In this document: piece by piece, positions 3,144-64,000 of the stretch
Layout of the letters: the number at the start of each line of letters is the position of its first letter
Position numbering within the stretch: position 1 is the stretch's first letter
Assembly (NCBI GenBank): GCA_949300385.1
Contig: CASGDZ010000003.1
Location: forward strand, 17,316 to 81,315
Length of the DNA: 64,000 nucleotides
DNA from: an uncultured Christensenella sp.
GTDB lineage: Bacteria > Bacillota > Clostridia > Christensenellales > UBA1242
Direction of reading: 5' to 3'
Program-made: the position numbers and the translations under genes
The notes under the pieces: model-generated
What the model saw: only the letters and a program-made list of their open reading frames with translations
Told to the model about the DNA's origin: nothing
Databases searched by the model: none

Positions 3144-3172
3144 AAAAAACGAGTTTGAACTCGTTTTTTATT
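3144..3172. terminator. bidirectional terminator shared by convergent genes
   Basis: AAAAAACGAGT-TTGA-ACTCGTTTTTT hairpin. It overlaps the stop codon (3168-3170) of the minus-strand gene. Confidence 0.7.
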
Positions 3173-28152: not shown

Positions 28153-30903
28153 CTATCTTTTTGGACCTTCACCCATGATATATTGTACAGCAGGGAATGC
28201 AATAATATCAACAAACGATCTATCCATAGGCCCTGTTATAAAGAATGCTCTACCGCGCGGTGCAGTTACAATACCTTCTTGTTCCTGCGCGTTTATTCCG
28301 CCTGCTGACTTGTAAAGTTCTAGCAAATCAGCCATATCGTTAGGCGCTAATTGTAAAATCATACTATATTGACATGCGTTAATGATCGCTGCTGACCTTC
28401 TTTGAATTTCTGGCGTTCCTAAGAAGTCTTTAATATTTTGTGTAATTACAATCTGCATACCTTGATATTTACGAATACGCTTAGCCATCTCTGCCATGAA
28501 GTTCAATGCAACTGGACTATCTGGATCGATAAACATATGCGCTTCATCTACCGCAATGACGACTTGTCGCTTAATATCTTTACCTGTCCTTTGATAATAT
28601 TGTTCATTAAAACGCTTATTATTGATAATTTCATTATTAAGGTATTTAAATACTAGCAACATTTGAGCATTCGCAAGTTTATTATTTTTACTTGCAAATA
28701 GCGTTTGGAAGTTAAATGTAATTAAGTTTTCATCTGTCAAAATAGAAGTTGGTCCGTTCCACAAATCTGAGTTACGACCGCCAGTCGCAAATTTTTGAAT
28801 ATATGTCTCAAGAATTAAAAGGTTGTTTCTGTAGAAAGGATCTTTCACCGTTTTAAGTTTAGACTTAATAAGCGCAAACAAATCGTCAAATATAGGATAA
28901 TCTTCCGCCTTTAACTTACCGATATTTGTCTTTTCATTAATACCCTTTTTATTATACAATTCAACGACTAATGTATTAAGCGTTTCAAATGCGTCCGAAC
29001 TAATACCTTCCAAAATTGCACGGAAGAACTGCTCTAAGAACTGCAAGTGAGTAAAGAATGTTTTATTACTACCTTTTTGAACGATATCATCTATCGCCAC
29101 ATCGTCAATGTTATCTGAACTATTCGCCGCGTCTAAGTCCTCAAGCGAAGCCATTATATGGAACGGGTTAAGAATACCGGATGAATTTGTACCCACATCG
29201 ATAACTTTACCACCCAAATTTCTTGTCATTACATCATATTCTTGCTCAGGGTCTAAAATAAACATTTTTGTTCTATCTGCCGCCAGATTCGTTAAAATCA
29301 TTTTTGTTGCATAAGATTTACCTGAACCCGACTTACCGATAACCATCATATTTGAGTTAATACGACCTTTTCTTGCGTCACGAGTGAAGAAATCAATAAA
29401 TACAGGATATCCGCTCGAACTTGATTGTCCAAGTGCAAAACCTGCAGGATCTTGCATAATAGAGTCTACCATAGGGAAAGACGCTGCAATAGTTGTTGAC
29501 GGCATGCTACGATAGAATGGTTTTAGTGTGTCTAACCTATTCACACTCGAAGATATGAAGGCGTCAACTTGCCTACCAAACAAATCAGAGTATTTAAATC
29601 CATATTGTTTTAAGACATTTCGAACTTCTTTTCGCTTATCTTCTTCAACTCGCAGATGGATTGAAATATCATACAATTGCTCATTATTTGTTTTCAAATC
29701 TTTTAAAAGTGTTTGTAATGATTCAATATCCGCTTCACGCTCGATAATTTCGCTCGATCTAAAAGTCCTATCCAACTTTGACTCTTTTTCCATAACCGCG
29801 CGATCGATAGTTTTTTCGCCCTTTTCCTTGTCAACTGGCATAATGTTCATAATAACACGAGTGCCGAGTTGACTAAATATAGGATAAGCCCAACCATTGC
29901 CTACTTCAAGTGGATAATTTGAAATTACCATTTGCTTATAATTCTTTTTATCCATTTCGACGCGCGCCACTTTGAAATTGATTCTATTTGGCATAACCCA
30001 ATTATTGATTTGACTTGGTGCCAATCCATCGATTTCTTTTTCGCTATAAACCGATTGATAGTTCGATTTTAAGAAACTAATTAAATCATCTTCCGTCAAA
30101 ATATCCGCCGATATCGTATATTGTCCAGTACTCAAATCGTTACAAATTCCAATACAAGTTTCTTCCAAATTTGTTCTATCATTTCCATATAACACCAAAT
30201 AGAAGTGATCTTGTAATACAGGTTCCGCACGAATTGCATTGTTTAATCGCTCAACACGCTCTCTAAATATAATCGAACGCGCCTCCATTTCGGCTTCAGT
30301 GTACTGACCCGCCTCATATAACTCGTTAAGTAATTCAAATTTTTTATCGTCATTTTTTAAGAAAATATCAAATCTCATCGGCTTAACATTTTTAATTAAA
30401 CTCGCCCGCTGATATTGAGAAATTCTCTTAAGCGCTTTACTAAATGTCATAATAAGTGAATCTTGAGCGGATTCTTGCATAAGGTCAAGTGCAACAGGGT
30501 GTATTTCAATAACCATTCCCGAATAATCACCGAAATCAATAAATTTACCCACATCAATATTTAAGAAAGGTGTAAGTTTTTCTATTGATTTTGACCTTGA
30601 TTTTTTTGAATTAGGTTGCATTTTTATATATTTCTTAGGAAAGGCAGCAAATCTAATAATAAGTCCAATTGAACTATAAAGCCTTAGCCCATCGTCAATA
30701 GGAATATACATACCGATAACGATCGCGATCCAACCCAATAGTGCGTACCAGCGGTAATCTACGCCATCGATTTTAAACAAATTGCTCGCAATAATAACTA
30801 CAGCAAAGATAAGGCAGATAACCGCAAGTATGATATCTCCAAACGAAATATTTTTAAAAAATTCAGTTTTAACCCGAGTTTTCCCCGGAATATATCTAAT
30901 CAT
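28153..30903 (-). CDS. virB4: VirB4/TraE/TcpF-family T4SS ATPase with an N-terminal two-TM VirB3-like segment
   Basis: Walker A VIGKSGSGKSYATK, Walker B QVVIAVDEAHMF, and IVITQN downstream. The 916-aa size fits. Two N-terminal hydrophobic helices are present. Shine-Dalgarno is GAAGGGG. Confidence 0.85.
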   Translation of the reverse strand: MIRYIPGKTRVKTEFFKNISFGDIILAVICLIFAVVIIASNLFKIDGVDYRWYALLGWIAIVIGMYIPIDDGLRLYSSIGLIIRFAAFPKKYIKMQPNSKKSRSKSIEKLTPFLNIDVGKFIDFGDYSGMVIEIHPVALDLMQESAQDSLIMTFSKALKRISQYQRASLIKNVKPMRFDIFLKNDDKKFELLNELYEAGQYTEAEMEARSIIFRERVERLNNAIRAEPVLQDHFYLVLYGNDRTNLEETCIGICNDLSTGQYTISADILTEDDLISFLKSNYQSVYSEKEIDGLAPSQINNWVMPNRINFKVARVEMDKKNYKQMVISNYPLEVGNGWAYPIFSQLGTRVIMNIMPVDKEKGEKTIDRAVMEKESKLDRTFRSSEIIEREADIESLQTLLKDLKTNNEQLYDISIHLRVEEDKRKEVRNVLKQYGFKYSDLFGRQVDAFISSSVNRLDTLKPFYRSMPSTTIAASFPMVDSIMQDPAGFALGQSSSSGYPVFIDFFTRDARKGRINSNMMVIGKSGSGKSYATKMILTNLAADRTKMFILDPEQEYDVMTRNLGGKVIDVGTNSSGILNPFHIMASLEDLDAANSSDNIDDVAIDDIVQKGSNKTFFTHLQFLEQFFRAILEGISSDAFETLNTLVVELYNKKGINEKTNIGKLKAEDYPIFDDLFALIKSKLKTVKDPFYRNNLLILETYIQKFATGGRNSDLWNGPTSILTDENLITFNFQTLFASKNNKLANAQMLLVFKYLNNEIINNKRFNEQYYQRTGKDIKRQVVIAVDEAHMFIDPDSPVALNFMAEMAKRIRKYQGMQIVITQNIKDFLGTPEIQRRSAAIINACQYSMILQLAPNDMADLLELYKSAGGINAQEQEGIVTAPRGRAFFITGPMDRSFVDIIAFPAVQYIMGEGPKR

Positions 30904-30961
30904 TTTACCCCTTCTAATCTATTACTTTTTTTCATTCTTTTTATTTTGGCGCTTTACAAGT

Positions 30962-33181
30962 TTATTTTTTGTCACCCTTGTTTGAGTCTTTGTTTTCTTT
31001 TATAGCTCTTCCAAAATCTTTACCATTTTCTATAATTGCAGATACAATACTCTTGTTCATATCCTTAGTATAATTGGTCATTCTATTTACTGAAGCATCT
31101 ACTTGTTTTACGACATCGAATAATTTTTCATTTTGAGCTTTTTTCAAGTCTTCTAATGTCGCGAAAATGTCTTCTGACAATTCTTGATTTACCGATGTAT
31201 CATTAGTATCAAGTTTTATACCATTTTTTAAACTCTTTAATTCTTCTGTTAATTTTTTTATTGGATCTACGAATTCTTTAATTGAATCTTGCATAGCCAT
31301 ATACTCACGAACAGCCTCGTTACTATCCCTTCTAAATTGTTTTTCATCATTACTAATTGATTTATCTTCCAGCTCTTCTTTAGTGTATAACTTACCAACA
31401 TTCATATTCTCTTGAGTAACGCTATCAAATCTTTGTTTATACCTTTCAGCTTTTTGAGTTGCTTTATCCATGTTTTTCAATTCGTCTGTTAGCTCTTTAT
31501 TTTTTGACTCTACTTGCTCATATTTTGCCTTATCAACTTTTAAAGATTTTAATGCTTCTGCAACATATCCTAAATCTTTAAGTTTAGACAAAGCTTTAAT
31601 AGCATCTTTAGGGAGTTCTGAGGTTGGAGAATAATTATCCTTTAAAGATTTAATTAACTCTCTTTCCTCATGGTTTTGTTTAGCCTCTTGCTTTCCTTCT
31701 TTCTGAGAGCTTTTCACTTTATCGGTATCAACTCCTGCATCTTTAGCTACTTTCTTTAAATTATCTTTAATTTGCTTTTTTATAGGATATCCAATTCCTG
31801 ATCTAATGTCACTTCTTTGTTCTTCTTTAAGCTGTTTTTCAATAGCACTTTTCTGTTTTTCTTTTTCTTGTGCGGTCAAATCAGCATTATTGTCAATTTC
31901 TTTGAACATATTATTTTTTAATTCTTTATAATAACTATGTGTTCCAATTCTTCTAGCTCCAGCAGCAAACGCTCCAGTAACTTTTTGCCCCGCTTTTTGT
32001 GTGGTTTTTTTAAGTCTGTCTTTTGTGCTAGACCATAAACCTTTACCATCATTTAGAGCATCTCCGCCACCAATATAACCATTTATCAACGATATAAAAT
32101 CTTTGACAACATATAATCCCGCGACTGTTAGGAGTAAAGTAGTTAAATCAACTATATTTAAGATTCCACCTGTTATATTCCAATCGAAACTGATGGTTTG
32201 AATTAGTGGAGAAATACTAAAGAATAAATTCATGCCAGCGATTGCGCCATATGCACTAATAGTGTTACTTATAAAATTGCCCTTCCATTTACCTACTGCA
32301 CTTCCTCCGTCAAGCGGATATAAAGCGCATAATGCAGGACTAATAATAAATAAGAATATAAGCATAAACATGCGCTTTATCATACCAAAAGTTATATAGA
32401 ACATGGAATAAAGTACAAATATTCCACCGCCTGCCAAAATAATATAATTTATGTTTATTAAGTTGTACCATATGCCGACAGACACCCAATCACAATAATT
32501 CCACTGATTGCTAGCCATTGCTTGATCTACACAATCTGCATAATATTCAAGGTCAGAATCTCCATTAGGATCATTAGAAAATGCTCGAATAGTAATTCCA
32601 TTACTTTCACAAAATTCTTTAATTTCATTATATTCTGTTTCGTCTATTGTCGAACCATATTTTGTACCTGTACGAATGTTGTTTGCTGAATATGCCGAAA
32701 CTAAGAAAATTTGACCGCTTAAATTTGTATTAGATTCGCTTAATCTAGTTGCTCCATCAATGGCATTTAATAGGATATTGCCTAACCATACACCAAGCAG
32801 ACAGCAAACAGGTAAAAATATGAAATTAGCAAGACCTTTAAAGGCATTTCCCACGATCTCTTTCCAAGACTTAGGTTGCGCAGCATATACATTTTTAATA
32901 AATGCCATTGTGGTAAAAATTACAATTAAGAATAACGCTAAAAATGAAATAGATATTAACAAATTTTTAACCAATGTTGTATTCAACAAATAGAACACAA
33001 GTCCAGTATCATTTACTTCGCCTGTATTATTTGAACCAATATTGCCGATAGAATCAATCCTTGCAACCCCTGTGCCTGCAAAAGTCGCAAATAATTCTTG
33101 CATCATATTAATAAGCACAAATATTATAGTGAATAAAGGATAAATAATCGTACCTAATGTTTCTAGTATTCCATCTACCAT
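30962..33181 (-). CDS. polytopic membrane protein with a long cytoplasmic K/E-rich coiled-coil tail; VirB6/TrbL/TcpH-like candidate
   Basis: About 6-7 TM helices fill the first 400 aa or so, followed by roughly 340 aa of charged helical sequence. It lies immediately upstream of virB4 and is likely co-transcribed with it. Shine-Dalgarno is AAGGAGA. The call rests on architecture and position only. Confidence 0.55.
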   Translation of the reverse strand: MVDGILETLGTIIYPLFTIIFVLINMMQELFATFAGTGVARIDSIGNIGSNNTGEVNDTGLVFYLLNTTLVKNLLISISFLALFLIVIFTTMAFIKNVYAAQPKSWKEIVGNAFKGLANFIFLPVCCLLGVWLGNILLNAIDGATRLSESNTNLSGQIFLVSAYSANNIRTGTKYGSTIDETEYNEIKEFCESNGITIRAFSNDPNGDSDLEYYADCVDQAMASNQWNYCDWVSVGIWYNLININYIILAGGGIFVLYSMFYITFGMIKRMFMLIFLFIISPALCALYPLDGGSAVGKWKGNFISNTISAYGAIAGMNLFFSISPLIQTISFDWNITGGILNIVDLTTLLLTVAGLYVVKDFISLINGYIGGGDALNDGKGLWSSTKDRLKKTTQKAGQKVTGAFAAGARRIGTHSYYKELKNNMFKEIDNNADLTAQEKEKQKSAIEKQLKEEQRSDIRSGIGYPIKKQIKDNLKKVAKDAGVDTDKVKSSQKEGKQEAKQNHEERELIKSLKDNYSPTSELPKDAIKALSKLKDLGYVAEALKSLKVDKAKYEQVESKNKELTDELKNMDKATQKAERYKQRFDSVTQENMNVGKLYTKEELEDKSISNDEKQFRRDSNEAVREYMAMQDSIKEFVDPIKKLTEELKSLKNGIKLDTNDTSVNQELSEDIFATLEDLKKAQNEKLFDVVKQVDASVNRMTNYTKDMNKSIVSAIIENGKDFGRAIKENKDSNKGDKK

Positions 33182-33233
33182 TTTGTCTCCTTCTTATGCG
33201 TAAGTGCACCCATAAACTTTTTATCTAGTATAT

Positions 33234-33262
33234 ATTATATACTATTGCGACAAATTAATCAA
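33234..33262 (-). promoter_or_regulatory. candidate promoter of the virB6-like/virB4 operon
   Basis: On the minus strand: TTGATT (33262-33257), 17 nt, TATAAT (33239-33234). Confidence 0.35.
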
Positions 33263-33448
33263 TAAAAAGACATTAAAAATTTTTAATATAGGTAAATTAA
33301 TATTAATTTAACTAACTAATCGACATAATAAAAAATCTCAGTTTACTATTTTTAATCCGTATTAAATTTTAGGTAATATTGTTTAAATATTTTTAATTAT
33401 CAAATTTATTTATTCTTTTAAAATAATTTTTAAATTATAAAAAATCAA

Positions 33449-33475
33449 CATAAAAAATGCGGTAAATCCGCATTT
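33449..33475 (-). terminator. terminator of the 493-aa gene
   Basis: AAATGCGG-TAAA-(T)CCGCATTT hairpin overlaps the stop and is followed on the minus strand by a T-run. Confidence 0.6.
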
Positions 33476-34955
33476 AATTTGTTACCTTATTATCAGCAAA
33501 AGCAAATTTACAATTGCTAGTAAAATCTAATTGTATTCCGCCATTTTTTTTAATCGAATAAACACTATCTTCTGTCGTTCCTGTATTAATTTCTAAATAT
33601 ATATTAAAATCACTTTCACCTTTTTGTGAAGCGTATATTATATCCCAAGTGGACACACCCGCGGATAAATGACCTAAATTGTTCACATCAATATTTGTAA
33701 ATGTTGTTGCTGAAAGATTAAACCCTTCCGCACTAAAATAATACGCACCCAACTCTTCATCTAAAATTTCCGATTCCATAACTACATTAGTTGTTCCGTC
33801 GGTTATTGTGATAGAAAACTCGTTTAAATCAATATCCTTTCCGCCAACATTCATTTCTAAATCGGTCAATGTTACATTCATTTTTGGCATATAAATAGCC
33901 ATAATATAATCTTCTTGTAACAAGTTATTTATACCGCCATCTTCTGCGAAAATATAATCTTTAACATATAATTTTTCAGCACGAATAGTAGTCGCATTAT
34001 TGAAATACTCATCAATAGTCGTAGAAATCATACTCTCAATTGAAGAATCATCTACGCTACTCTCGTCTTCAGTATTTGTTGTATATAAATCGTTTGAATT
34101 AATATAATCTTTAATCAAAATAGCAATTTCGCTATTCATATCACTAGATAATCCAAAATATTTGATATTATCAAGTTGCGACATTGTATCACTAATTGTC
34201 CCATCTGGATTGTCAAGCGCATATACTATATCTATAATTCCATTATTTGCACCATTTCCAGCCAATAACTGATAGAGTTCGGGGTATTCATTTGCAAATG
34301 TAGACTCATTAAATTTTAAATAATCATAATTAGTTGGGATATTAATGTTAATTGTTAAAGAGTAATCATTTTCTTTGCTCTCAATACTATCTACAACATT
34401 TTCAACAATGACTACATATTCATTTAACAAATCTGCACGCGCTTGTTCGTCGTCAATATATATCGTTCGTATCCCATAATAATTTGAACCAGTCATAATT
34501 GGGCTATCAGGTGTGATTCCTTCCGAATCCGAATTCCCAGTTAACCAACCAAACATACTATCAAACCAAGCCGCTATTGCCGAGCCAATAACTAGTATAA
34601 TAAAAAACCCCAAGAAGATTAATGCCAATATACCAATAGCGCTAGCTATATATCTCAATATTTGTTTTTTTCTATCAAGTGATCGATTTATTCCCCTAAC
34701 AATATTGGGATAATTTTTTCTTCCTTTTTTCATTAAGGTTTTTTCTTTATATGATAAAATCGGAAATACTCTTCCTTTGACACTTTTTCTAAGTTGAATT
34801 AATTGATTTCGAAATGATCTGTCTTCTGCTTTTTGTTTTTGAGATAATTCAGCATCTCGAGTTTCAAGATCTTCTTCGTCTTCGGTTTCTACATCAACTC
34901 CATATTGTTTGTCATCATCTTCAAATTCTTCCTCATTGATATTATTCTCTGCCAT
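33474..34955 (-). CDS. bitopic T4SS-associated protein of unknown family: acidic cytoplasmic N-terminus, one TM, about 360-aa extracytoplasmic domain
   Basis: The N-terminus is E/D-rich. The TM helix is ILRYIASAIGILALIFLGFFIILVIGSAIAAWF. The outer domain is N/D/T/Y-rich. Shine-Dalgarno is AAGGAGAT. It has its own terminator. Confidence 0.6.
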   Translation of the reverse strand: MAENNINEEEFEDDDKQYGVDVETEDEEDLETRDAELSQKQKAEDRSFRNQLIQLRKSVKGRVFPILSYKEKTLMKKGRKNYPNIVRGINRSLDRKKQILRYIASAIGILALIFLGFFIILVIGSAIAAWFDSMFGWLTGNSDSEGITPDSPIMTGSNYYGIRTIYIDDEQARADLLNEYVVIVENVVDSIESKENDYSLTININIPTNYDYLKFNESTFANEYPELYQLLAGNGANNGIIDIVYALDNPDGTISDTMSQLDNIKYFGLSSDMNSEIAILIKDYINSNDLYTTNTEDESSVDDSSIESMISTTIDEYFNNATTIRAEKLYVKDYIFAEDGGINNLLQEDYIMAIYMPKMNVTLTDLEMNVGGKDIDLNEFSITITDGTTNVVMESEILDEELGAYYFSAEGFNLSATTFTNIDVNNLGHLSAGVSTWDIIYASQKGESDFNIYLEINTGTTEDSVYSIKKNGGIQLDFTSNCKFAFADNKVTN

Positions 34956-35131
34956 AATATCTCCTTAGGTTTATTATATCAAATTAGCAATAAAATTACA
35001 AATATTATTGAAACATATTTGTATTTTAAATCTCAAAATAAATTCTATATCACATTGACTAAAATATATATTCAGTTAAATTTAACTTACAATTTTTATA
35101 ATGATGTGAATTTAATGTTATATTATATAAA

Positions 35132-35154
35132 ATAAAAAAGACGGATACCGTCTT
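35132..35154 (-). terminator. terminator of the pilin-like gene
   Basis: AAGACGG-ATA-CCGTCTT hairpin with a T-run on the minus strand. Confidence 0.65.
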
Positions 35155-35179
35155 TCTCTTACTAATCAAACTTACAGTT

Positions 35180-35518
35180 CTAAGCAACAAGCACTTTAAG
35201 AGCTGTACCTATGGAACCTGTTTCATTCCACCAATTATTGAATGTAATTTGTCCTTCTTTTATAGCATATGCTAACCAGTAGAACAATGCTATCAACAAT
35301 CCTGTAACAACAATTCCGACAATTACTGAAATAAGTTTTGCTTTTGCCTCATCACGCTCACCTTTTTCATCCGCCTTGACAAATTTTACGCCAACAACTA
35401 TAGCATATATAACACCAGCGGTTGCAGCTAATATCAAAATAGGATTAATGACATTTGTCATAGCGTTTACCAAAGTGTTCATCCAATCTGGTAATGTAGT
35501 TTCCATTAAAGTGCTCAT
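35180..35518 (-). CDS. VirB2/TrbC-like (pilin-like) two-helix membrane protein
   Basis: The 112-aa product has two hydrophobic helices separated by the charged loop KADEKGERDEAKAK. Shine-Dalgarno is very strong (AAGGGGGAT). The gene is monocistronic with its own terminator. The family call rests on topology and context. Confidence 0.5.
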   Translation of the reverse strand: MSTLMETTLPDWMNTLVNAMTNVINPILILAATAGVIYAIVVGVKFVKADEKGERDEAKAKLISVIVGIVVTGLLIALFYWLAYAIKEGQITFNNWWNETGSIGTALKVLVA

Positions 35519-35799
35519 AAAATATCCCCCTTACACAACACAACAAAAATATTTTGTGTCAATTTATGTCATAATATTAACAATTTAGAAATTTAAAATC
35601 AACTAATTTTAATATGTTTTTTAATTTTTTTGCATTTTTATTTAATTTTATTAAATTCATATTTAATAGTTTTACCCTATTTTTATATAATTAATCAGAT
35701 TTTTATTTAAAATTTATATTATTAATTTTATATTTTTAATTAATTTACAAATTAATTTCATTAAAGTAAAAATAATAAAATAAACATTTTAACTTTTAA

Positions 35800-35828
35800 T
35801 TGACAAAATACGCGACATTATATAATAT
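35800..35828 (+). promoter_or_regulatory. candidate virD4 promoter
   Basis: TTGACA (35800-35805) is followed either by TATAAT (35821-35826, 15-nt spacer) or by TAATAT (35823-35828, 17-nt spacer). Confidence 0.35.
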
Positions 35829-35875
35829 AAATATAGATTTATGTAAAAATAATTAAAAGCAATAAAAGGATAAAT

Positions 35876-37891
35876 ATGAAAGATTTTTTAAAAAAGGCAT
35901 TAAAATATCTTATCTTAGCAATTGTAGTTTATGTTGTTGCAACTATCATCATGACATATATCAATGAAGGTACAATAAGTTTCGGTGTTAAATATGCGAC
36001 AAGTGGACAACCATTTATCTTTGTATTTTTAGCGGTTGGTGTATTGCTAGTATACGACCTTTTACGAATACTAGACGGCAAGGGCGGGAAAAAGAAAAAA
36101 GATAAAGCGATAGATAAAGTTACAGACTCTCACGGAAACGAAACAACTCAATACTTCAATAGAGAATTCGTAAGCGAAGAAGAACTAAAAACAAATAAAA
36201 GTTATAATTACAACACTTTGTCAACTTTGAAAAATTGCAAAAAAGATGGTATACTTGTACGCGCAGACGAGTCAAAGGGCAAAATGGAAATTAACTTCGT
36301 CGAACCTATTCATACATTGATAGTAGGTACAACATCATCTGGTAAGACATCGCGTTTTGTCGTTCCGTCATTGCAACTTATGAGCATGACAGCCGCAAAA
36401 CCATCATTTGTTATAACTGACCCAAAAGGCGAATTATACGAAAAAGACGCAAATCATTTTATCGAGCAAGGTTATGATGTTAAAGTGTTAGATATTCGTG
36501 ACCCGTTTGCGTCAACTCAATGGAACCCATTAACATATGCATTTGATATATACACTCGTAGTTTCTCGCTAGAAAACGAAGTGCGTGTGCATCCTGCGGG
36601 CGATAACCCAAGAAGTTATAATCTAGTATTGCAACGCGATTTTGATTATGCTACTACAACATGGTTCGAGTTCGACGGAAAAGCATATGCAGACAAATCA
36701 GCATTAGAAAATGATATGCGCGTATTGTCAAGAAAATTGCGTGACGACACATACAATGCGCTTAATGACATTTGTACCACTCTCGCACCTATCGAAAGCG
36801 ATAAAGACCCTTCTTGGGAGCGCACAGCACAGCGATTAATTCACGCTGTAATGCTAGCCATGCTTGAAGATAGTAGAATACCTGAATTAGGAATGACGCG
36901 TGAGAAATATAACCTTTATAATGTACAAAAAATTTGTAATATAACAGACAGCGGTCGTGACACTTACGCAACGCTTAAAAAATATTTATTTGACTATCGC
37001 GATAAATTTTCACAAGTTCATGACCTTGCTTCTACCGCGCTTAACAACGCAGAAGGCACTTCTAAAAACTATATGGGCTTCGTTTCAAGTAAAACGGCTA
37101 TGTTCAGTGATGCTGGTATAAGTTTCATGACAGAAAAAACCGAAATTGACTTCATCGACATAGACGAAAAGCCAACAGCAATATTCCTAATCATTCCAGA
37201 CGAAATTCGCGTGCGTTATCCTTTAGCAATTTTATTCGTAACTCAATTATATAAGCGTCTAGTTGAAAAAGCGCAATCTATGGGCGGAAGATTAAAACGA
37301 AATGTTTACTTCATGCTAGACGAATTTGGTAACATGCCTAAATTCCCACAATTTGCATCCATTATGACAGTCGGTAGATCGCGTGGTATATTCTTCGAAC
37401 TTGCCGTTCAATCATATAGTCAGTTATACCAAATTTATGGTCAAGAAGAAGGTAAAATCATTAAAGACAACTGTCCTATTCAAGTTTATATCGCAACAGA
37501 AGATATGACAACAAACAAAGAATTTAGCGAGTTGCTTGGTAAAAAGACAATTCGACGAGAATCTGAAAATAAATCGGTTGGACCAGATGGTAAAGAAAGC
37601 AAATCGACAACGCCAACTATCGAATCTATACCACTTGTATATCCTGAACAATTAATGACATTTAGAGATAAAGGTGAAATCATTATTAAAACATTCTCTC
37701 CAAACGCTTGCTTAAAAACAAAAATTTCATCATGTTATACATCTAAAGTCTATAATATCTCAGAAAAGGGCGACATATATAGACCACGCCGTATGTTTGA
37801 CGAGAATGCAGTGTTCTATGATGCTAGACGAAGAAATCAAATCATGGCACAACAAAATGATGACGACGATGATGACGATGACTTATTCTAA
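35876..37891 (+). CDS. virD4: VirD4/TraG-family type IV coupling protein
   Basis: Two N-terminal TM helices, Walker A IVGTTSSGKTS, Walker B YFMLDEFGNM, and VQSYSQLYQIYG, the T4CP-typical Q..QL..YG. The C-terminus is DDDDDDDDLF. Confidence 0.85.
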   Translation: MKDFLKKALKYLILAIVVYVVATIIMTYINEGTISFGVKYATSGQPFIFVFLAVGVLLVYDLLRILDGKGGKKKKDKAIDKVTDSHGNETTQYFNREFVSEEELKTNKSYNYNTLSTLKNCKKDGILVRADESKGKMEINFVEPIHTLIVGTTSSGKTSRFVVPSLQLMSMTAAKPSFVITDPKGELYEKDANHFIEQGYDVKVLDIRDPFASTQWNPLTYAFDIYTRSFSLENEVRVHPAGDNPRSYNLVLQRDFDYATTTWFEFDGKAYADKSALENDMRVLSRKLRDDTYNALNDICTTLAPIESDKDPSWERTAQRLIHAVMLAMLEDSRIPELGMTREKYNLYNVQKICNITDSGRDTYATLKKYLFDYRDKFSQVHDLASTALNNAEGTSKNYMGFVSSKTAMFSDAGISFMTEKTEIDFIDIDEKPTAIFLIIPDEIRVRYPLAILFVTQLYKRLVEKAQSMGGRLKRNVYFMLDEFGNMPKFPQFASIMTVGRSRGIFFELAVQSYSQLYQIYGQEEGKIIKDNCPIQVYIATEDMTTNKEFSELLGKKTIRRESENKSVGPDGKESKSTTPTIESIPLVYPEQLMTFRDKGEIIIKTFSPNACLKTKISSCYTSKVYNISEKGDIYRPRRMFDENAVFYDARRRNQIMAQQNDDDDDDDDLF

Positions 37892-37908
37892 AATTATAAT
37901 TAAATGAT

Positions 37909-37941
37909 AAAAAACTAGCCTGGCGCTAGTTTTTTGTTTTT
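37909..37941 (+). terminator. virD4 terminator
   Basis: AAAAACTAGC-CTGGC-GCTAGTTTTTTGTTTTTT. Confidence 0.7.
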
Positions 37942-38070
37942 TATTAAATCCATATTTCTTTACCTACATAATTTGTAATAAATATTATAGAAATATTATA
38001 TTTTATGTAAATTATAGTATTTGTTCTAGATTAATTCATCATATTATTAATAATTGAAATTATTATAAAT

Positions 38071-38124
38071 AAATTATTATCAATCGTATTTTTAGATAAA
38101 TTATTATCAATTGTATTTTTAGAA
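38071..38124. repeat. 27-bp tandem direct repeat, two copies, 25/27 identical
   Basis: AAATTATTATCAATCGTATTTTTAGAT followed by AAATTATTATCAATTGTATTTTTAGAA. A partial third AAATTATTAT lies just upstream at 38057. Confidence 0.85.
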
Positions 38125-38238
38125 ACAGTTTATTAATTGCCAAACAACATAATTAATTTATCATTATAAATTTAAATGTATTATCAATCTGTCAATTTTT
38201 TAATATAATTTACATCAATAATAATAAAAATTAAATAT

Positions 38239-38502
38239 TTATTCCACCAAAATACCTGTAGACAAAAAATACTCTTCTTCAAACTCGCGAATTAAGTCGA
38301 TTTTTGATTTTTTTGGCGTCAAATACATTATGACATTTTCAATCTCAAATTTAATTGTAGTATTTATATTTAATAATTTATAAAAATCTAACGCTTGTTT
38401 TATTATTTCTTCATAATCATTACCTTTACTTAATCCCACCAAACGAATCAACTCTCCATTGACAAATTCAGCGAAAACCGACTTATATCTCTTTCTAATC
38501 AT
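38239..38502 (-). CDS. hypothetical 87-aa protein
   Basis: The start is moved to MIRKRYK, which follows a strong GGAGGA Shine-Dalgarno (complement of 38509-38514). No motif was recognised. Confidence 0.5.
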   Translation of the reverse strand: MIRKRYKSVFAEFVNGELIRLVGLSKGNDYEEIIKQALDFYKLLNINTTIKFEIENVIMYLTPKKSKIDLIREFEEEYFLSTGILVE

Positions 38503-38665
38503 GCTATCCTCCAAAAATTTAATATTATATATAATATTCGTGACATAATGATATAGTTCATATTCGCAAAATTTCCTAAAATACGACAAATTTATAAAAA
38601 AATAACCAACTTTAGATTAATAATTTTTTATTATAAGAAAAAATTGGAACTAAAATTTAATACCT

Positions 38666-38723
38666 AAAAACTCGATTATTTTCGAGTCTACTTCGCTAAA
38701 GGGAGTTAATTTGAACCAACGAC
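38666..38723 (-). pseudogene. degenerate copy of the tRNA-fMet 3' part (T arm and acceptor) with a copy of its terminator hairpin
   Basis: About 80 percent identical by eye to 38855-38912. The T stem (CCAAC to TAACT) and the acceptor/CCA are destroyed, so it cannot be a functional tRNA. Confidence 0.6.
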
Positions 38724-38850
38724 AGCGTCGCAATTCTCGTTTTTACTCAATCGCTCTATTGTTTCGCGATTTCGTCTTTTACTCGCTTGCTCCTTTTCCC
38801 CGTCAAAACTTTCGTTTTGCGGGGACCCCAACCCGAAGGTCTATCTCTAC
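38724..38850 (-). other. GC-elevated, ORF-free segment with two very stable tetraloop hairpins; function unknown (sRNA or recombination scar)
   Basis: Minus-strand CCCCG-CAAAAC-GAAA-GUUUUG-A-CGGGG (38798-38824) and GACC-UUCG-GGUU (about 38830-38842). There is also an internal 21-nt direct repeat, GAGTAAAAGACGAAATCGCGA / GAGTAAAAACGAGAATTGCGA. Confidence 0.35.
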
Positions 38851-38852
38851 AT

Positions 38853-38879
38853 GAAAAAAACTCGGATTAATTCCGAGTC
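38853..38879 (-). terminator. terminator of tRNA-fMet
   Basis: ACTCGGA-TTAAT-TCCGAGT hairpin with a T-run on the minus strand (A-run 38854-38860 on plus). Confidence 0.7.
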
Positions 38880-38883
38880 TACT

Positions 38884-38960
38884 TGGTTGCGGGAGTTGGA
38901 TTTGAACCAACGACCTTCGGGTTATGAGCCCGACGAGCTGCCGTGCTGCTCCATCCCGCG
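38884..38960 (-). tRNA. initiator tRNA-fMet (anticodon CAT), CCA encoded
   Basis: The reverse complement reads CGCGGGA-TG-GAGC-AGCACGGC-AGCTC-G-TCGGG-CTCATAA-CCCGA-AGGTC-GTTGG-TTCAAAT-CCAAC-TCCCGCA-A-CCA. It has the C1xA72 mismatch and three G-C pairs closing the anticodon stem, which are the initiator hallmarks. Confidence 0.92.
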
Positions 38961-59351: not shown

Positions 59352-60446
59352 TTATACATTAAACTTAAATACTATAATATCGCCGTCTTGCACTACATAA
59401 TCTTTACCCGCACTTATAACTTTTCCCTTTTCTTTGCACAAATTATAATCGCCAAGTGAGATTAAATCATCATATTTTACTACATCTGCGCGAATAAAAC
59501 CGCGCTCAAAATCGGTATGAATTTTCCCTGCTGCTTGTGGAGCGAGAGTCCCGCGTTTAATAGTCCATGCGCGTACTTCCTTTTCTCCAGCAGTAATAAA
59601 ACTAATGAGCCCTAACAAATGATAACTAGCAACAATTAATTTCTCTAATCCAGAAGCGTCAATACCCAACTCTCTTTTGAACATTTCTCTATCTTCTGGC
59701 GACATGTTTATCAACTCTTCTTCTGTCTTAGCACATAGAGAGATAACTTCTGCCCCTTCTAATTTTGCTAACTCTTTAATTTTTTCAATTCCGTCTAATT
59801 GAAATTCATCTAAAGTATCGCCTGTATTTGCAACATAGATAACGGGCTTGCTTGTTATCAAGAAAAATCCGTCTACAATCTTTTTTTCTTCCGCGTCCAT
59901 TTTTAACATGCGAGCAGGTTTACTTTCTTTTAAAAGGTCTAAAATTTTATTTAATAACTCGTATTCTTTTTGAGTAGTTAAATCTGCCGACCCACCATGG
60001 ACAATCTTTTTTATTTTGTCCAATCGTTTCGTTACGCTATCAATATCGGCTAGAATCAATTCAAGATTAATAGTGTCTATATCGCGCAAAGGGTCTACGC
60101 TGCCATCTACATGGATAATTTTATCATTTTTAAACACACGCACAACATGCACTATTGCGTCCACTTCTTTAATGTGTGATAAAAATTTGTTTCCAAGTCC
60201 AGCACCTTCGCTTGCACCTTTTACGAGTCCTGCAATATCTACGAACTCAATTTGCGCGGGTATAATTTTATTTGTGTGATATAGTTTTGCTAATTCGTTT
60301 AGTCTATTATCTGCCACATCGACAACACCAACATTTGGTTCTATTGTACAAAACGGATAATTCGCACTTTCTGCTCCCGCCTTTGTTATTGCATTAAATA
60401 GTGTACTTTTGCCTACATTTGGAAGTCCAACAACGCCTAATTTCAT
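59352..60446 (-). CDS. ychF: redox-regulated ribosome-binding ATPase YchF
   Basis: MKLGVVGLPNVGKSTLFNA P-loop, a TGS-like C-terminus (...IVFKFNV) and 364-aa length. Confidence 0.92.
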   Translation of the reverse strand: MKLGVVGLPNVGKSTLFNAITKAGAESANYPFCTIEPNVGVVDVADNRLNELAKLYHTNKIIPAQIEFVDIAGLVKGASEGAGLGNKFLSHIKEVDAIVHVVRVFKNDKIIHVDGSVDPLRDIDTINLELILADIDSVTKRLDKIKKIVHGGSADLTTQKEYELLNKILDLLKESKPARMLKMDAEEKKIVDGFFLITSKPVIYVANTGDTLDEFQLDGIEKIKELAKLEGAEVISLCAKTEEELINMSPEDREMFKRELGIDASGLEKLIVASYHLLGLISFITAGEKEVRAWTIKRGTLAPQAAGKIHTDFERGFIRADVVKYDDLISLGDYNLCKEKGKVISAGKDYVVQDGDIIVFKFNV

Positions 60447-60558
60447 AAATTCGTCCTTTCTATGAGTATATATTTATTTTAAATTGAATAGATTATTTAA
60501 GTGATAGATTAATCTTCTACATTTTGATAATTATATATAATAAAAGGGAAAATTTCAA

Positions 60559-61305
60559 GTGATTGAGATAATTAAGTATATTTTCATAGGTTTTATTCAG
60601 GGCATTACTGAATTTTTACCTATTTCTAGTAGCGGACATATAGTTTTATTTGGTTCAATGTTTAATTTGGACAACCTTTTGCTTATAAGTATAGTAGCAC
60701 ATATTGGTACACTATTTGCCGTTTTGTTTTGTTATAGAAAAAAAATATTTGAACTAATTCGCCACCCTATCGATAAAACAAATTTGCATTTAATAATAGC
60801 CACTATCCCTACAGTCATAATAGTATTGATTTTTAACAAGTTTTTAGAAGACAACTTTTCTACTAAAACTTTAATTTGGGGATTTCTTATTTCGGCGGTT
60901 GCTCTATTAATCGCAGATCTTAAAAAGACAGGAACAAAGCAAATAACAAAATCTAGTGCGCTCTACATGGGTTTAGCCCAAGGATTAGCGCTCCTTCCCG
61001 GAATATCGCGCAGTGGTTCAACCTTAGTATGCGGATTACTCGTGGGCGTAGAGAAAAAAGAAGCCTTAGACTTCTCTTTCCTAATGAGTATCTCTATAAT
61101 TATTGCTAGCGCAGTATACGAAAGCATAAAATTGTTTACTCTTCAACTCACAGTTAACTGGTTAGGAATTTTTATAGTTATGATAACATCTTTTATATTT
61201 GGTATCTTGTCTATAAAGATTATGTTAAAAATTGTTAAAACTAATAAATTATACTATTTTTCAATCTATTTAATTGTTTTAAGTTTAATTCTTTTAATTT
61301 TTTAA
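60559..61305 (+). CDS. uppP: undecaprenyl-diphosphate phosphatase
   Basis: QGITEFLPISSSGH and PGISRSGST motifs in a polytopic protein. It has a GTG start. Confidence 0.88.
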   Translation: MIEIIKYIFIGFIQGITEFLPISSSGHIVLFGSMFNLDNLLLISIVAHIGTLFAVLFCYRKKIFELIRHPIDKTNLHLIIATIPTVIIVLIFNKFLEDNFSTKTLIWGFLISAVALLIADLKKTGTKQITKSSALYMGLAQGLALLPGISRSGSTLVCGLLVGVEKKEALDFSFLMSISIIIASAVYESIKLFTLQLTVNWLGIFIVMITSFIFGILSIKIMLKIVKTNKLYYFSIYLIVLSLILLIF

Positions 61306-61393
61306 ATAACTACAAATCTAAATTTTGACATCATTATAAAATTAATGAACAATCGCACCATTTAAGCAATGTTTTGTAATATGTAATATAAAT

Positions 61394-62035
61394 TTATATT
61401 CTAACTAATGTTCCATTGTATAAATTAATGTTATAATTCTTAGTTATACCTTCATTAATTTCTGGCAATTCGCCGACAATAGTATATTCAACATCGATTG
61501 TTGTATCTTCAAAAGAAATTGCTTCATCACCATTCATTAAAGTATAATTAATATTACTAAGGATAGTTTCAAAATCAGTTATATCTTTTTCTACAACTGA
61601 GCCTTCTGAAACTGTAACGGTATACATCGGTTCTTCACTGCTATCAATTGAAATGCTAACATCATCAACATTTAATATTGCGTCACGCTTATCGATAGTC
61701 ACAGTAAGCGGATCATTTGAGATATAATCTTTATAACCTTCTAAAGAAACTTTATAATAGACATTATAAACACCTGAATCAACAAGCCCTAAATCTTTTA
61801 CAAAATTATCTTTTGTTAGAGAATATGTTACATTAATATTTTTATCCTCATAGGCAATAGTAAAAATATGAGATTCTCCGTCATAAGTGTACACGCCATC
61901 TGCCCCATTAACAACAAACAATGAATCATTAAATGTCAGGCGATTATCATCATCTTTACATGCTGAGAATACCACCATTGAGCATAAAATCAAAAGTGTA
62001 CACAATACAACTTTTAAACTTTTTATAATTTTCAT
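61394..62035 (-). CDS. hypothetical lipoprotein (beta-rich)
   Basis: Signal peptide with lipobox VVFSAC-K, the same FSAC lipobox as the giant protein. Shine-Dalgarno is AAGGCGGA. Confidence 0.6.
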   Translation of the reverse strand: MKIIKSLKVVLCTLLILCSMVVFSACKDDDNRLTFNDSLFVVNGADGVYTYDGESHIFTIAYEDKNINVTYSLTKDNFVKDLGLVDSGVYNVYYKVSLEGYKDYISNDPLTVTIDKRDAILNVDDVSISIDSSEEPMYTVTVSEGSVVEKDITDFETILSNINYTLMNGDEAISFEDTTIDVEYTIVGELPEINEGITKNYNINLYNGTLVRI

Positions 62036-62299
62036 ATATCCGCCTTTAAAATTACTAATTTAAAAATTATTATATCTATTATTTTGTAGTCTATACGATA
62101 AGTTTTATTAGTATTATAATAACAAAATTTTATTTAAATAGCAAATCATTTTATATCATAATAAATTGATTACTATTCTTAAATATTTAAGTAAAACGCT
62201 AGAACTAAACAAAAAATATGCAAAATGTATTCATATAAAAGTTATATAATCGATTAACATGTCCATTTTTTATTACAAAAAATCATTTTTTACTAAATA

Positions 62300-62331
62300 T
62301 AAAAAGTCAAAGTACCTTATACCCTGACTTC
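62300..62331 (-). terminator. terminator of the four-TM protein gene
   Basis: On the minus strand: AAGTCA...TGACTT stem (62330-62325 / 62309-62304) followed by a T-run. Confidence 0.5.
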
Positions 62332-62365
62332 CTTAATTTAAAATATGACTTAATATTATGACATT

Positions 62366-62914
62366 TCAATCTTTTTTAGTGAAAAAATTAATAAATTTTG
62401 CAAATTTTAGTGTAATTTTGTTTGAATGAACGAGCGAATATTTTTTGAATTTTGATTTTCCAAATATTGTTAGTCCCGCTATTATTGCTGAAACTAGTGA
62501 AGAAATTACTATATCCATCAACTCCCCGTTCATGGTTATTCTTGTTAGTATACTTGCTCCTCCTGCACCTGATAACACACCACAAACATCGCAAATAACA
62601 TCGCAAATAGACGCTACTTTATCCGCATTCTTATTTAGCGCCATTGCCTGTCTGCTACCTTTAACTTTACGAGAAGCCATCGCTGCGAAGTGTTCAACAT
62701 TGCTAGACGCGACTGCAAGCCCAAGAACATCAAATAAAATACTTAATGCTATAAAGACTAAAATAATGATAATAGAAATTATAATTGCTGTCTTTGAAAG
62801 TGCGATTTCGCTGACTACACTAAAAATTAAAGAAAGCGATATTGCTAAAATCAAAATTTTTATTGACCATATCCAAGGTTTTTCATTTTTCTTTCGCTCA
62901 TGTCTTTGTTTCAT
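62366..62914 (-). CDS. small four-TM membrane protein (about 20 kDa) co-oriented with and directly downstream of the large structured RNA; OapA-like or DUF21-like by architecture
   Basis: It has four hydrophobic helices with intramembrane Asp residues (LFDVLGLAV, ICDVICDVCG) and an SEIAL segment after TM1. The start is set at MKQRHERKK because the longer ORF-track N-terminus runs into the structured RNA. Confidence 0.6.
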   Translation of the reverse strand: MKQRHERKKNEKPWIWSIKILILAISLSLIFSVVSEIALSKTAIIISIIIILVFIALSILFDVLGLAVASSNVEHFAAMASRKVKGSRQAMALNKNADKVASICDVICDVCGVLSGAGGASILTRITMNGELMDIVISSLVSAIIAGLTIFGKSKFKKYSLVHSNKITLKFAKFINFFTKKD

Positions 62915-62948
62915 ATATAAAATTGCTACTACAATTGTTTTTAAATAT

Positions 62949-63493
62949 GAAGGCGACAATTTGAGTAAACCTTGCGCCTTAGGTTCGGTTGGATTTCCCA
63001 ATTTTGCACTTAATAGTTACCCACTAAGCGGTTTCCCTTTACGCAAAACTTGCACCGAATCGCCACTTAGAACACACTATAATCCCCAAAATGCCTAGCG
63101 TAAGCTAACAGCTTAGAAGTTTTCCTTAACAACATCGAAGAAATTTATCTTAGTTTTGCAAATAATATTTCAAAAGTATTCTGATATAAGATATATTTTA
63201 CTTTATCCCAAATTATTCACTCAAAGCAGGCTACACTGCATATAACTTTCACCACATGCAGGTTTATACCCTAAAAGATAGAGTAATGAAAAATAATTAT
63301 CTATCTACCTATTTAGGTCTCCGCGAAAATTGGGGTTAGCATATATGCCATTATATACGCCCCAAAAATCTTAACTCCCAGCACTAGCCCCAATTTGGGC
63401 AACCAAAGCCAGCACCACGAACTTCATAGTTGTGCCAACAATGCTTATTTCAGCATCTTCATATCTCTTAGTTGACTAGAATACTGCGCCTTC
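62949..63493 (-). ncRNA. candidate large (about 545 nt) structured RNA or leader, possibly OLE-class
   Basis: The region has no plausible ORF and is visibly more G/C-rich than its surroundings. A 7-bp closing helix pairs GAAGGCG (63493-63487) with CGCCUUC (62955-62949). It contains many local hairpins. A promoter lies immediately upstream, and no terminator lies before the downstream membrane protein gene. Confidence 0.5.
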
Positions 63494-63498
63494 AAAAT

Positions 63499-63528
63499 AT
63501 TATATTAAAGACAGAAAAAGATTGTTAA
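63499..63528 (-). promoter_or_regulatory. promoter of the structured RNA / membrane protein transcript
   Basis: On the minus strand: TTAACA (63528-63523), 18 nt, TATAAT (63504-63499). The closing-helix G at 63493 follows 5 nt later. Confidence 0.45.
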
Positions 63529-63583
63529 ATCTAATCACATTACTATTAATAATAAAAATTTAATATTAATAATTTGATATATT

Positions 63584-64000
63584 TTATTTCAAATTCTTGT
63601 ACTTATTTTGACAAGATATAGGTATAATCTCTTCAATATTTTTATTTATAGCAACTTTCATTATTGTATCTTTATTCTTACGCTTTACAAAAGCAAAAAT
63701 ATATATAATATTTGCCATAATTAACACACTTACTAACACTAAATCTATAATTGATTTATTAAAAACTAACATTAAAACGGCAAATATTGTGTTTATAATC
63801 ATATGCATGGTTAATATCCATTTGTTTTTCTTTAAGAAATCGTTATGTCTATAACAATTTTGTAAAAGTTTAACTGAATTAATGAGCATAATTAAAATCA
63901 AAATTAGCATTATGGTAAAGACATATATTATAAGACAATTAACTAAATTTACATTTAATGAAAATGCTGAAAAAATATTATAAATAGGTATAAATAGCAT
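63584..64000 (-). CDS. hydrophobic membrane protein; it may continue beyond the right edge
   Basis: The ORF reaches the window end with an ATG at 63998-64000 (complement). It has about four hydrophobic helices and no recognised motif. Confidence 0.4.
   Translation of the reverse strand: MLFIPIYNIFSAFSLNVNLVNCLIIYVFTIMLILILIMLINSVKLLQNCYRHNDFLKKNKWILTMHMIINTIFAVLMLVFNKSIIDLVLVSVLIMANIIYIFAFVKRKNKDTIMKVAINKNIEEIIPISCQNKYKNLK

Follow-up and report, generated by a model that had tools for sequence, protein, structure and literature searches.

A 64-kb window of a 101-kb ENA metagenome contig (the window being the whole 64,000-nt stretch of DNA analyzed here) contains, between the gene for a small membrane protein and its upstream neighbor (stop at 63584), a long stretch that does not look like a gene for a protein, which raises the question of what is made from it. 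An earlier note on this DNA had read the stretch as an OLE-class RNA followed by oapA or, failing that, as a new large leader or riboswitch controlling a membrane protein. The best explanation, which we hold to be almost certain, is that it is an ole gene, specifying an OLE (ornate, large, extremophilic) RNA of ~545 nt in a reduced form and apparently transcribed together with its partner gene oapA. RNA and gene are an ordinary copy of the known OLE/OapA system, and the find of the earlier note is a rediscovery: both the family, with its partner protein and gene order, and its reduced forms (those without P13 and those with a shorter P9) have been published already. The features of the locus are collected in Table 1.

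Table 1. Features of the ole-oapA locus, in the order of transcription (positions refer to the window).
Feature	Position	Strand	Details
Sigma-70-type promoter of ole	63499..63528	-	-35 TTAACA 63528-63523; 18-nt spacer; -10 TATAAT 63504-63499
OLE RNA	62949..63493	-	545 nt, from P1 5' strand to P1 3' strand
P1, 5' strand, GAAGGC	63488..63493	-	Pairs with GCCUUC 62954-62949
P3-type long-range helix, 5' strand, AAGAGAU	63463..63469	-	Partner AUUUCUU 63144-63138; encloses P4-P9
P4 hairpin	63440..63457	-	A-rich loop GAAAUA; from the Rfam alignment; helix 2
P5/P5.1 long hairpin	63375..63421	-	Loop GCCCA; helix 3; 95.3% paired
P6/P6.1	63325..63370	-	Loop AAUGGC(AU); helices 4 and 5; 3 of 5 inner-stem pairs covary
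P7 hairpin	63270..63317	-	Helix 6; both-side changes at 9 pairs
P8 hairpin	63236..63261	-	Helix 7; 99% paired; 5 compensatory pairs
P9 arm	63148..63227	-	Distal part 63204-63173 shortened
P10 and P11	63096..63127	-	P10 63127-63117, P11 63107-63096; helix 12 invariant; helix 13 covaries at 4 of 4 pairs
P12/P12.1/P12.2/P14/P14.1/P15 domain	62955..63095	-	Helices 14-18
P1, 3' strand, GCCUUC	62949..62954	-	Partner of GAAGGC
Small spacer hairpin, AAUUGU-AGUA-GCAAUU	62921..62936	-	Followed by UUUAUAU and the start codon; 6 nt before ATG
oapA	62366..62914	-	182 aa; coordinates include the stop codon; ATG at 62914
Terminator-like hairpin and T-run after oapA	62301..62333	-	Only such site in 61300-64000

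Identification of an OLE RNA

When the whole window was scanned with Rfam at curated thresholds, one long match was obtained, to OLE (RF01071), on the minus strand at 63508..62934. Its score of 330.6 bits (E 2e-93) exceeds the gathering score of 50, and it extends untruncated over model positions 1-616 of 616; this is the outcome of the Rfam comparison that the earlier note had proposed as a check. A relaxed scan of the whole window added no further RNA, and no cis-regulatory Rfam family matched the OLE region at E <= 0.1. The upper-case consensus blocks of RF01071 that are matched in the window comprise GCAGUAUUCUAGUCA, GAGUUAAG, GUGUAGCCUG, GGAUUA.AGUG, AAAGGGAAACC, and GGGAAAUCC. At the level of single positions, 303 columns are invariant among the 17 relatives, and the window RNA retains 295 of them (97%); for the OLE family, >97% conservation has been described at about a quarter of positions. 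The element is also less AT-rich than the other intergenic regions, as had been remarked before, with a G+C content of 37.8%, compared with 30.4% for the window and 7-35% for all other intergenic gaps.

Covariation and the predicted fold

The secondary structure was assessed in an alignment of the window RNA with 17 full-length relatives, made with MAFFT (and thus not fitted to structure), onto which the Rfam structure was projected via the window row. Pairing partners slid by 1-3 columns and 500 shuffles served as controls, and the stem names used here were mapped from published descriptions, not from a figure. Across the 142 pairs tested in the 18 sequences, 89.8% of cells are paired, compared with 38.6-43.4% in the slid controls, and compensatory changes, that is, changes on both sides, occur at 55 pairs, compared with 14-23. 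None of the 500 shuffles attains any of the observed measures of pairing or covariation. Covariation among homologs, another check that had been suggested for this element, is strong.

The long-range helix P1, absent from the Rfam annotation, has six pairs that are 100% paired in the 18 sequences, with CG/UG/UA and GC/AU exchanges and with both sides changed at two of the six. The earlier note had drawn this helix with seven pairs, joining GAAGGCG (63493-63487) to CGCCUUC (62955-62949). The complementarity is real and six of the pairs covary, but the C of the seventh, C62955, is taken in the Rfam structure by a G at the start of P12. Within the element, a second long-range helix joins the segment before P4 to the one after P9 and corresponds to the P3-type stem that encloses P4-P9 in the published OLE model (PMC12265935). 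Its six equivalent pairs in the relatives are 92.6% paired, all six covary on both sides, and its covariation score is 0.981, compared with 0.318 for shuffles. The register of this helix in the window is shifted by 2 nt relative to the relatives; a first register, derived from the window, misfit them (42.9% paired) and was given up for the present one, in which the 3' partner is moved by 2 columns. The adjacent pairs of CAAC (63474-63471) with GUUG (63133-63130) and the P2-type pairs CAGU/GCUG and UAG/CUA are invariant except for one one-sided U-A/U-G change.

Several sites to which the OLE literature assigns a role can be recognized in the window RNA. The flanks of P5, AUGAAG and GGAGUUAAG, agree with the consensus and do not vary among the 18 copies; in the published OLE model, the nucleotides flanking P5 form a kink-turn, which is the OapC site (PMC9723947, PMC12286853). 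The A-rich loop of P4 is the site of the published A-A dimer bridge (PMC12286853, PMC12265935). In the window, the L6.1 loop AAUGGC(AU) is complementary to the L5.1 loop GCCCA, and the complementarity of L5.1 and L6.1 is the published intermolecular bridge of the OLE dimer.

The hairpins listed in the earlier note fared unequally. AUGCU..AGCAU (P4), UUGGGG..CCCCAA with its inner hairpin (P6/P6.1), AGAUAGA..UCUAUCU (P7), and CUGCAU..AUGCAG (P8) are real OLE stems. By contrast, CUAAGUGG/CCGCUUAG, GCAA/UUGC, and UAAGC/GCUUA are chance matches: their covariation equals the shuffled value and their pairs break at every varying column, and since they also conflict with the covarying stems P11, P14, and P14.1, which they overlap, they were rejected.

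A separate observation concerns AGUGG (63066-63062; columns 483-487 of alignment A2), which is complementary to CCGCU (63031-63027; columns 520-524). Rfam leaves AGUGG unpaired and assigns three of the CCGCU bases to P14.1. Both segments are near-invariant in the 18 copies, with one G-C to G-U change in two sequences, and they vary so little that the alignment cannot decide whether they pair.

A reduced copy of OLE

The window RNA departs from the Rfam model at P13 and at the tip of P9. P13 is absent, the 21-nt model insert being reduced to 2 nt, with the junction GCA at 63053-63051; the same 21-23-nt spacing at the P13 site is found in 64 of the 67 readable copies, the window and related loci taken together. 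The GNRA loop and single-nucleotide bulge of P13 form the primary OapB site (PMC7936274), and the GNRA loop of P14.1 is the published weak second OapB site; the latter loop (GUAA, 63020-63017) is kept in the window copy. Given that the loss of P13 is published natural variation, it does not exclude membership in the OLE family. Within the 64-kb window, a Pfam analysis of 43 ORFs yielded no candidate gene for OapB (KOW-like) or OapC (L7Ae-type).

The distal part of P9 measures 32 nt in the window, compared with 50-72 nt in the 65 readable related loci. At the tip, Rfam aligns 12 nt where the model has 32, and the hairpin that remains folds at only -0.5 kcal/mol. The palindromic apical loop that most of the 65 readable related loci possess is missing. 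This loop was shown by Kretsch et al. (PMC12286853) to form a symmetric kissing contact between two OLE RNAs. Of the loops involved in dimer contacts, the window copy has L4 (GAAAUA), L5.1 (GCCCA), and L6.1 (AAUGGC), but not the palindrome at the tip of P9. Among loci L002-L081, the palindrome reads GUAC in those nearest the window and GCGC, GGCC, or ACGU in others. The same cryo-EM paper (PMC12286853) reports covariation of the P9 loop among GGCC, GAUC, and AGCU; to these, GUAC, GCGC, and ACGU add self-complementary variants whose sequences fit a kissing-loop dimer contact.

The exact P9 shortening junction of the window was not found in the JGI metagenome collection. With a degenerate pattern, ten further OLE RNAs were recovered whose P9 tips measure 16-31 nt and which Rfam confirms at 216-505 bits, and shortening of the P9 arm thus recurs in nature. 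Both a shorter P9 and the loss of the OapB site are, moreover, published features of the variant 1 OLE RNAs (PMC11332333).

The reduction might suggest that the window harbors a decaying, non-functional OLE relic in a small-genome gut bacterium. Its Rfam score, tied with that of the related locus L017, is the lowest among the full-length nearest copies (330.6-364.3 bits), and the loss of ~20 nt at the tip of P9, including the dimer loop kept by the relatives, is unique to it and has left only the marginal hairpin described above. In addition, no other of the 18 copies has as many private changes in columns that are otherwise invariant: the window RNA bears 8, two of them in the shortened P9 tip, and the next copies 7 and 6. 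One of the private changes, however, is a compensated pair (GC to UG, columns 478/575), while the large majority of the positions invariant in the relatives is retained, all other helices are intact, and so are the promoter and the terminator. The adjacent oapA keeps 46 of the 46 columns that are invariant across 23 aligned OapA sequences, and the bona fide OLE RNAs with similarly short P9 tips argue against decay as well. A relic is hence highly unlikely and, as judged from its sequence, the window copy of OLE is not decayed.

The downstream gene encodes OapA

The protein encoded downstream of the RNA is, by its sequence and its predicted structure, OapA. The only Pfam domain found in its 182 residues is CNNM (PF01595), a weak match of 32.4 bits (cut-off 28.4). 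In an alignment of the window protein with 22 homologs (23 sequences), both aspartates of the DxxxD motif, D105-V-I-C-D109, are invariant, and so are E36 and D62; all of these acidic residues lie within long helices. The basic loop R82-K83-V-K85-G-S-R (RKVKGSR) is also conserved, with K83 and K85 invariant and R82 nearly so, and the N-terminus of the window protein, MKQRHERKKNEK, is basic. An AlphaFold2 model (pLDDT 80.5, pTM 0.73) has long helices at residues 13-39, 44-70, 97-127, and 131-162, in keeping with the earlier description of a protein of about 20 kDa with four transmembrane helices and intramembrane Asp residues. The top Foldseek matches of this model are CorB (7M1T/7M1U; query-normalized TM-score 0.50-0.61), followed by the transmembrane domain of CorC (7CFG); a sequence search against solved structures gave weak matches to CorB and PurT only (E >= 0.03).

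These properties match what has been published on OapA (PMC11332333, PMC12265935). According to Fernando and Breaker (PMC11332333), OapA ranks directly behind MpfA among the groups that score on the CNNM model, spans the membrane with four helices, is predicted to adopt a fold that superimposes on CorB (7M1U), and carries a DxxxD motif that is absent from CNNM domains. The identification rests on this correspondence in the CNNM match, the invariant DxxxD motif, the basic loop, the four long helices, and the CorB-like fold. The label DUF21/CNNM-like, given to the protein in the earlier note, was accurate, since a distant relationship of OapA to the CNNM domain has been published. Its broader reading, an OLE-class RNA followed by oapA, is upheld by the end-to-end RF01071 match, the covariation, and these hallmarks of OapA.

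In the public gene call on this contig, the protein is given as a 211-aa form that starts at a TTG (62366-63001) and extends 29 codons into the OLE RNA. Taken at face value, this call would make part of the element protein-coding, as the N-terminal extension of the longer ORF; an antisense ORF at 62445-63098 offers a second coding possibility. The homologs, however, begin at a methionine (MK...) that aligns with the ATG at 62914, and the 29-residue extension sits within covarying RNA helices. The stop-free runs of the element are short, the longest on the sense strand being 36 codons, and neither their frame nor their position is conserved among the 18 copies; no reading frame is conserved open across the 17 related OLE copies. 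The antisense ORF, for its part, largely overlaps oapA itself. We therefore give a coding function of the element practically no probability, in agreement with the earlier statement that it contains no credible ORF, and the alignment of the homologs places the true start of oapA at the ATG, the public call being 29 codons too early. An exact-protein look-up of the 182-aa OapA returned no entry, which is explained by the use of the 211-aa TTG form in the public gene calls.

Transcription of ole and oapA

The sequence TTAACA-18-TATAAT, with 11 of 12 matches, is the best promoter-like site in 61300-64000 and ends 5 nt before P1, exactly where the earlier note had placed the promoter. In 51 of 52 related loci, a -10-like hexamer precedes P1 by 4-12 nt; in many, it is accompanied by a perfect TTGACA farther upstream, and in several, the -10 is TG-extended. 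This conserved hexamer and the frequent perfect TTGACA indicate that, among these relatives, OLE is transcribed from a strong promoter of its own. A terminator scan of 61300-64000 found none between the OLE RNA and oapA, as had been claimed, although the spacer does hold a small hairpin and a U-rich tract. We infer that ole and oapA form one transcription unit, from their own promoter to the terminator after oapA.

The spacer between P1 and the oapA ATG is 34 nt long (62915-62948) and has no Shine-Dalgarno sequence, which most other genes of the window possess. A hairpin in this position passes strict criteria in 13 of the 20 copies with 33-40-nt spacers, compared with an average of 0.47 in shuffles; the hairpin of the window, which is among the 20, fails these criteria because its stem has one G-C pair only. 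In the relatives, the hairpins end 7-10 nt before the ATG, and their stems differ in sequence and stay complementary, that is, they covary. No description of this hairpin was found in the parts of the OLE literature available to us. Its possible roles are to set the 3' end of OLE, to terminate transcription weakly, to influence the translation of oapA, or to couple the production of OLE to the translation of OapA.

These features of the spacer bear on the possibility that the element serves chiefly as a leader or riboswitch that controls the transcription or translation of oapA in cis. The RNA and oapA are apparently co-transcribed without a strong terminator between them, and for a gene without a Shine-Dalgarno sequence, the conserved hairpin with its U-rich tract could be an expression platform. 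Yet, this sole candidate platform lies outside the OLE fold, no riboswitch family matches, relaxed thresholds included, and the full 545 nt belong to a family whose members are stable, abundant, membrane-bound RNA partners of OapA (PMC12265935). A primarily regulatory leader is accordingly very improbable, and given the OLE match, the new large leader or riboswitch that had been put forward as a fallback is not needed.

Relatives, host, and gene neighborhood

In a scan of one genome per species, 190 OapA relatives were found, of which the best 80 were kept. Among these best 80, the closest relatives of the window OapA have identities of 74% and below and come from uncultured gut Clostridia and Candidatus Onthoplasma, sampled from rabbit, chicken, sheep, and human; NCBI places Candidatus Onthoplasma in the Christensenellales, Bacillota. 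OLE is located immediately upstream of oapA in all 20 of the nearest loci scanned with Rfam, and 17 of the 20 matches are full length. The window also encodes SpoVT. With gut Clostridia as the nearest loci and SpoVT present, the host, known from its metagenome contig alone, fits the anaerobic or extremophilic Bacillota in which OLE is expected.

The gene neighborhood was compared between window positions 59352-64000 and locus L001, on one side, and loci L005-L061, on the other. The usual order in the relatives, where found, is ychF(-), uppP(+), ole, oapA, a metallo-beta-lactamase-fold gene(-), a gene for a 173-aa protein(-), and gltX(-). With respect to these flanks, ole-oapA has the reverse orientation in the window and in L002, the relative closest to it, and a lipoprotein-like gene lies downstream in both. 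Upstream, the window has a gene for a 196-aa membrane protein that is unmatched in the related loci. The gene uppP (undecaprenyl-diphosphatase) remains beside ole, which recalls the published link of OLE to isoprenoid and cell-wall genes.

Other features of the window

Outside the ole-oapA locus, the window contains a few further features of note. A 3620-aa ORF on the minus strand (8429-19291) carries a lipoprotein signal (...LIFSAC) and is rich in N, I, S, and T. It matches no Pfam family and is nearly free of internal repeats; its product is probably a giant surface protein. Conjugation-type genes occupy 28153-38960 and adjoin a tRNA-Met gene (38884-38960). They include a VirB4/TraG-like ATPase (28153-30903), a type IV secretion pilin (35180-35518), and a VirD4-type coupling protein (35876-37891), with large ORFs without Pfam matches between them, and the region may be an integrated conjugative element or a remnant of one. 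Beside the tRNA-Met gene, a 297-nt gap (38590-38886; 35% G+C) is the only other intergenic stretch nearing the G+C content of OLE, and no Rfam family matches it, relaxed thresholds included. Finally, a 781-aa protein encoded on the minus strand at 3168-5513 combines a membrane segment at its N-terminus with a series of repeated GRP(K/R)K AT-hook-like motifs at its C-terminus, an unusual feature in a bacterial protein.

Discussion

Compared with the OLE RNAs of Halalkalibacterium halodurans and Clostridium acetobutylicum (RF01071), the window copy shares the conserved sequence blocks, stems P1-P12 and P14-P15, and an anaerobic host among the Bacillota, and it likewise directly precedes oapA. 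It is missing P13, the hairpin bound by OapB in the model, and the palindromic P9 kissing loop. Whereas the ole gene of H. halodurans has been reported to be embedded in a long operon, ole-oapA in the window is a stand-alone two-gene unit. Among the reduced forms described so far, variant 1 OLE (Fernando and Breaker 2024, PMC11332333) is commonest in the TANB77 clade of uncultured gut bacteria and has in common with the window copy the shortened P9, the loss of the OapB-binding nucleotides of P13, and an uncultured gut host; P7 and P8 of the window are, however, near the model length. The window copy fits variant 1, a correspondence that is one of description, NCBI placing the nearest named relatives in the Christensenellales. 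Variant 2 (RF39 clade) is likewise a reduced OLE of gut bacteria with small genomes but is without P7 and P8, both of which the window copy has, and both of which covary.

On the protein side, no difference from OapA was found: the window protein has the size of ~20 kDa, the four transmembrane helices, the DxxxD motif, and the basic, presumably cytoplasmic residues. With MpfA and CorB, it shares the weak match to PF01595, and its predicted fold superimposes on that of CorB (7M1T/7M1U), but it differs from them in having no CBS or CorC domains and one more transmembrane helix.

The function of this OLE/OapA pair is inferred by homology, from work on the OLE RNAs of Halalkalibacterium halodurans and Clostridium in which OapA binding, dimer formation, and the roles in stress were described. 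Judging from the window sequence itself, the OLE RNA would be transcribed with oapA from its own sigma-70-type promoter, in a unit ending at the terminator after oapA, and it is predicted to fold into a molecule closed by P1, in which the P3-type helix encloses P4-P9 and is followed by the P10-P15 domain. By analogy, a dimer of OapA, as a four-helix membrane protein, would bind the RNA and hold it at the cell membrane, where OLE would probably act as an RNA dimer. The resulting particle may help the cell to cope with cold, short-chain alcohols, excess Mg2+, and poor carbon sources.

The window copy adds no new kind of element, and its practical value lies in annotation, in that the public call of oapA begins inside the OLE RNA. 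It is conceivable, though rather unlikely, that the copy represents a naturally minimized yet working OLE, without either P13 or the P9 kissing loop, and that the covarying spacer hairpin, in place of a Shine-Dalgarno sequence, is an undescribed element of this group of relatives. If the copy works, the dimer contact at the tip of P9 would be dispensable, or fewer contacts would suffice. The conserved hairpin before oapA is a small lead on how the levels of OLE and OapA are balanced. OLE is among the largest bacterial noncoding RNAs without a known biochemical function, and each natural reduced form shows which parts of the RNA are dispensable; the window copy is a further example of the natural loss of the P9 dimer loop.
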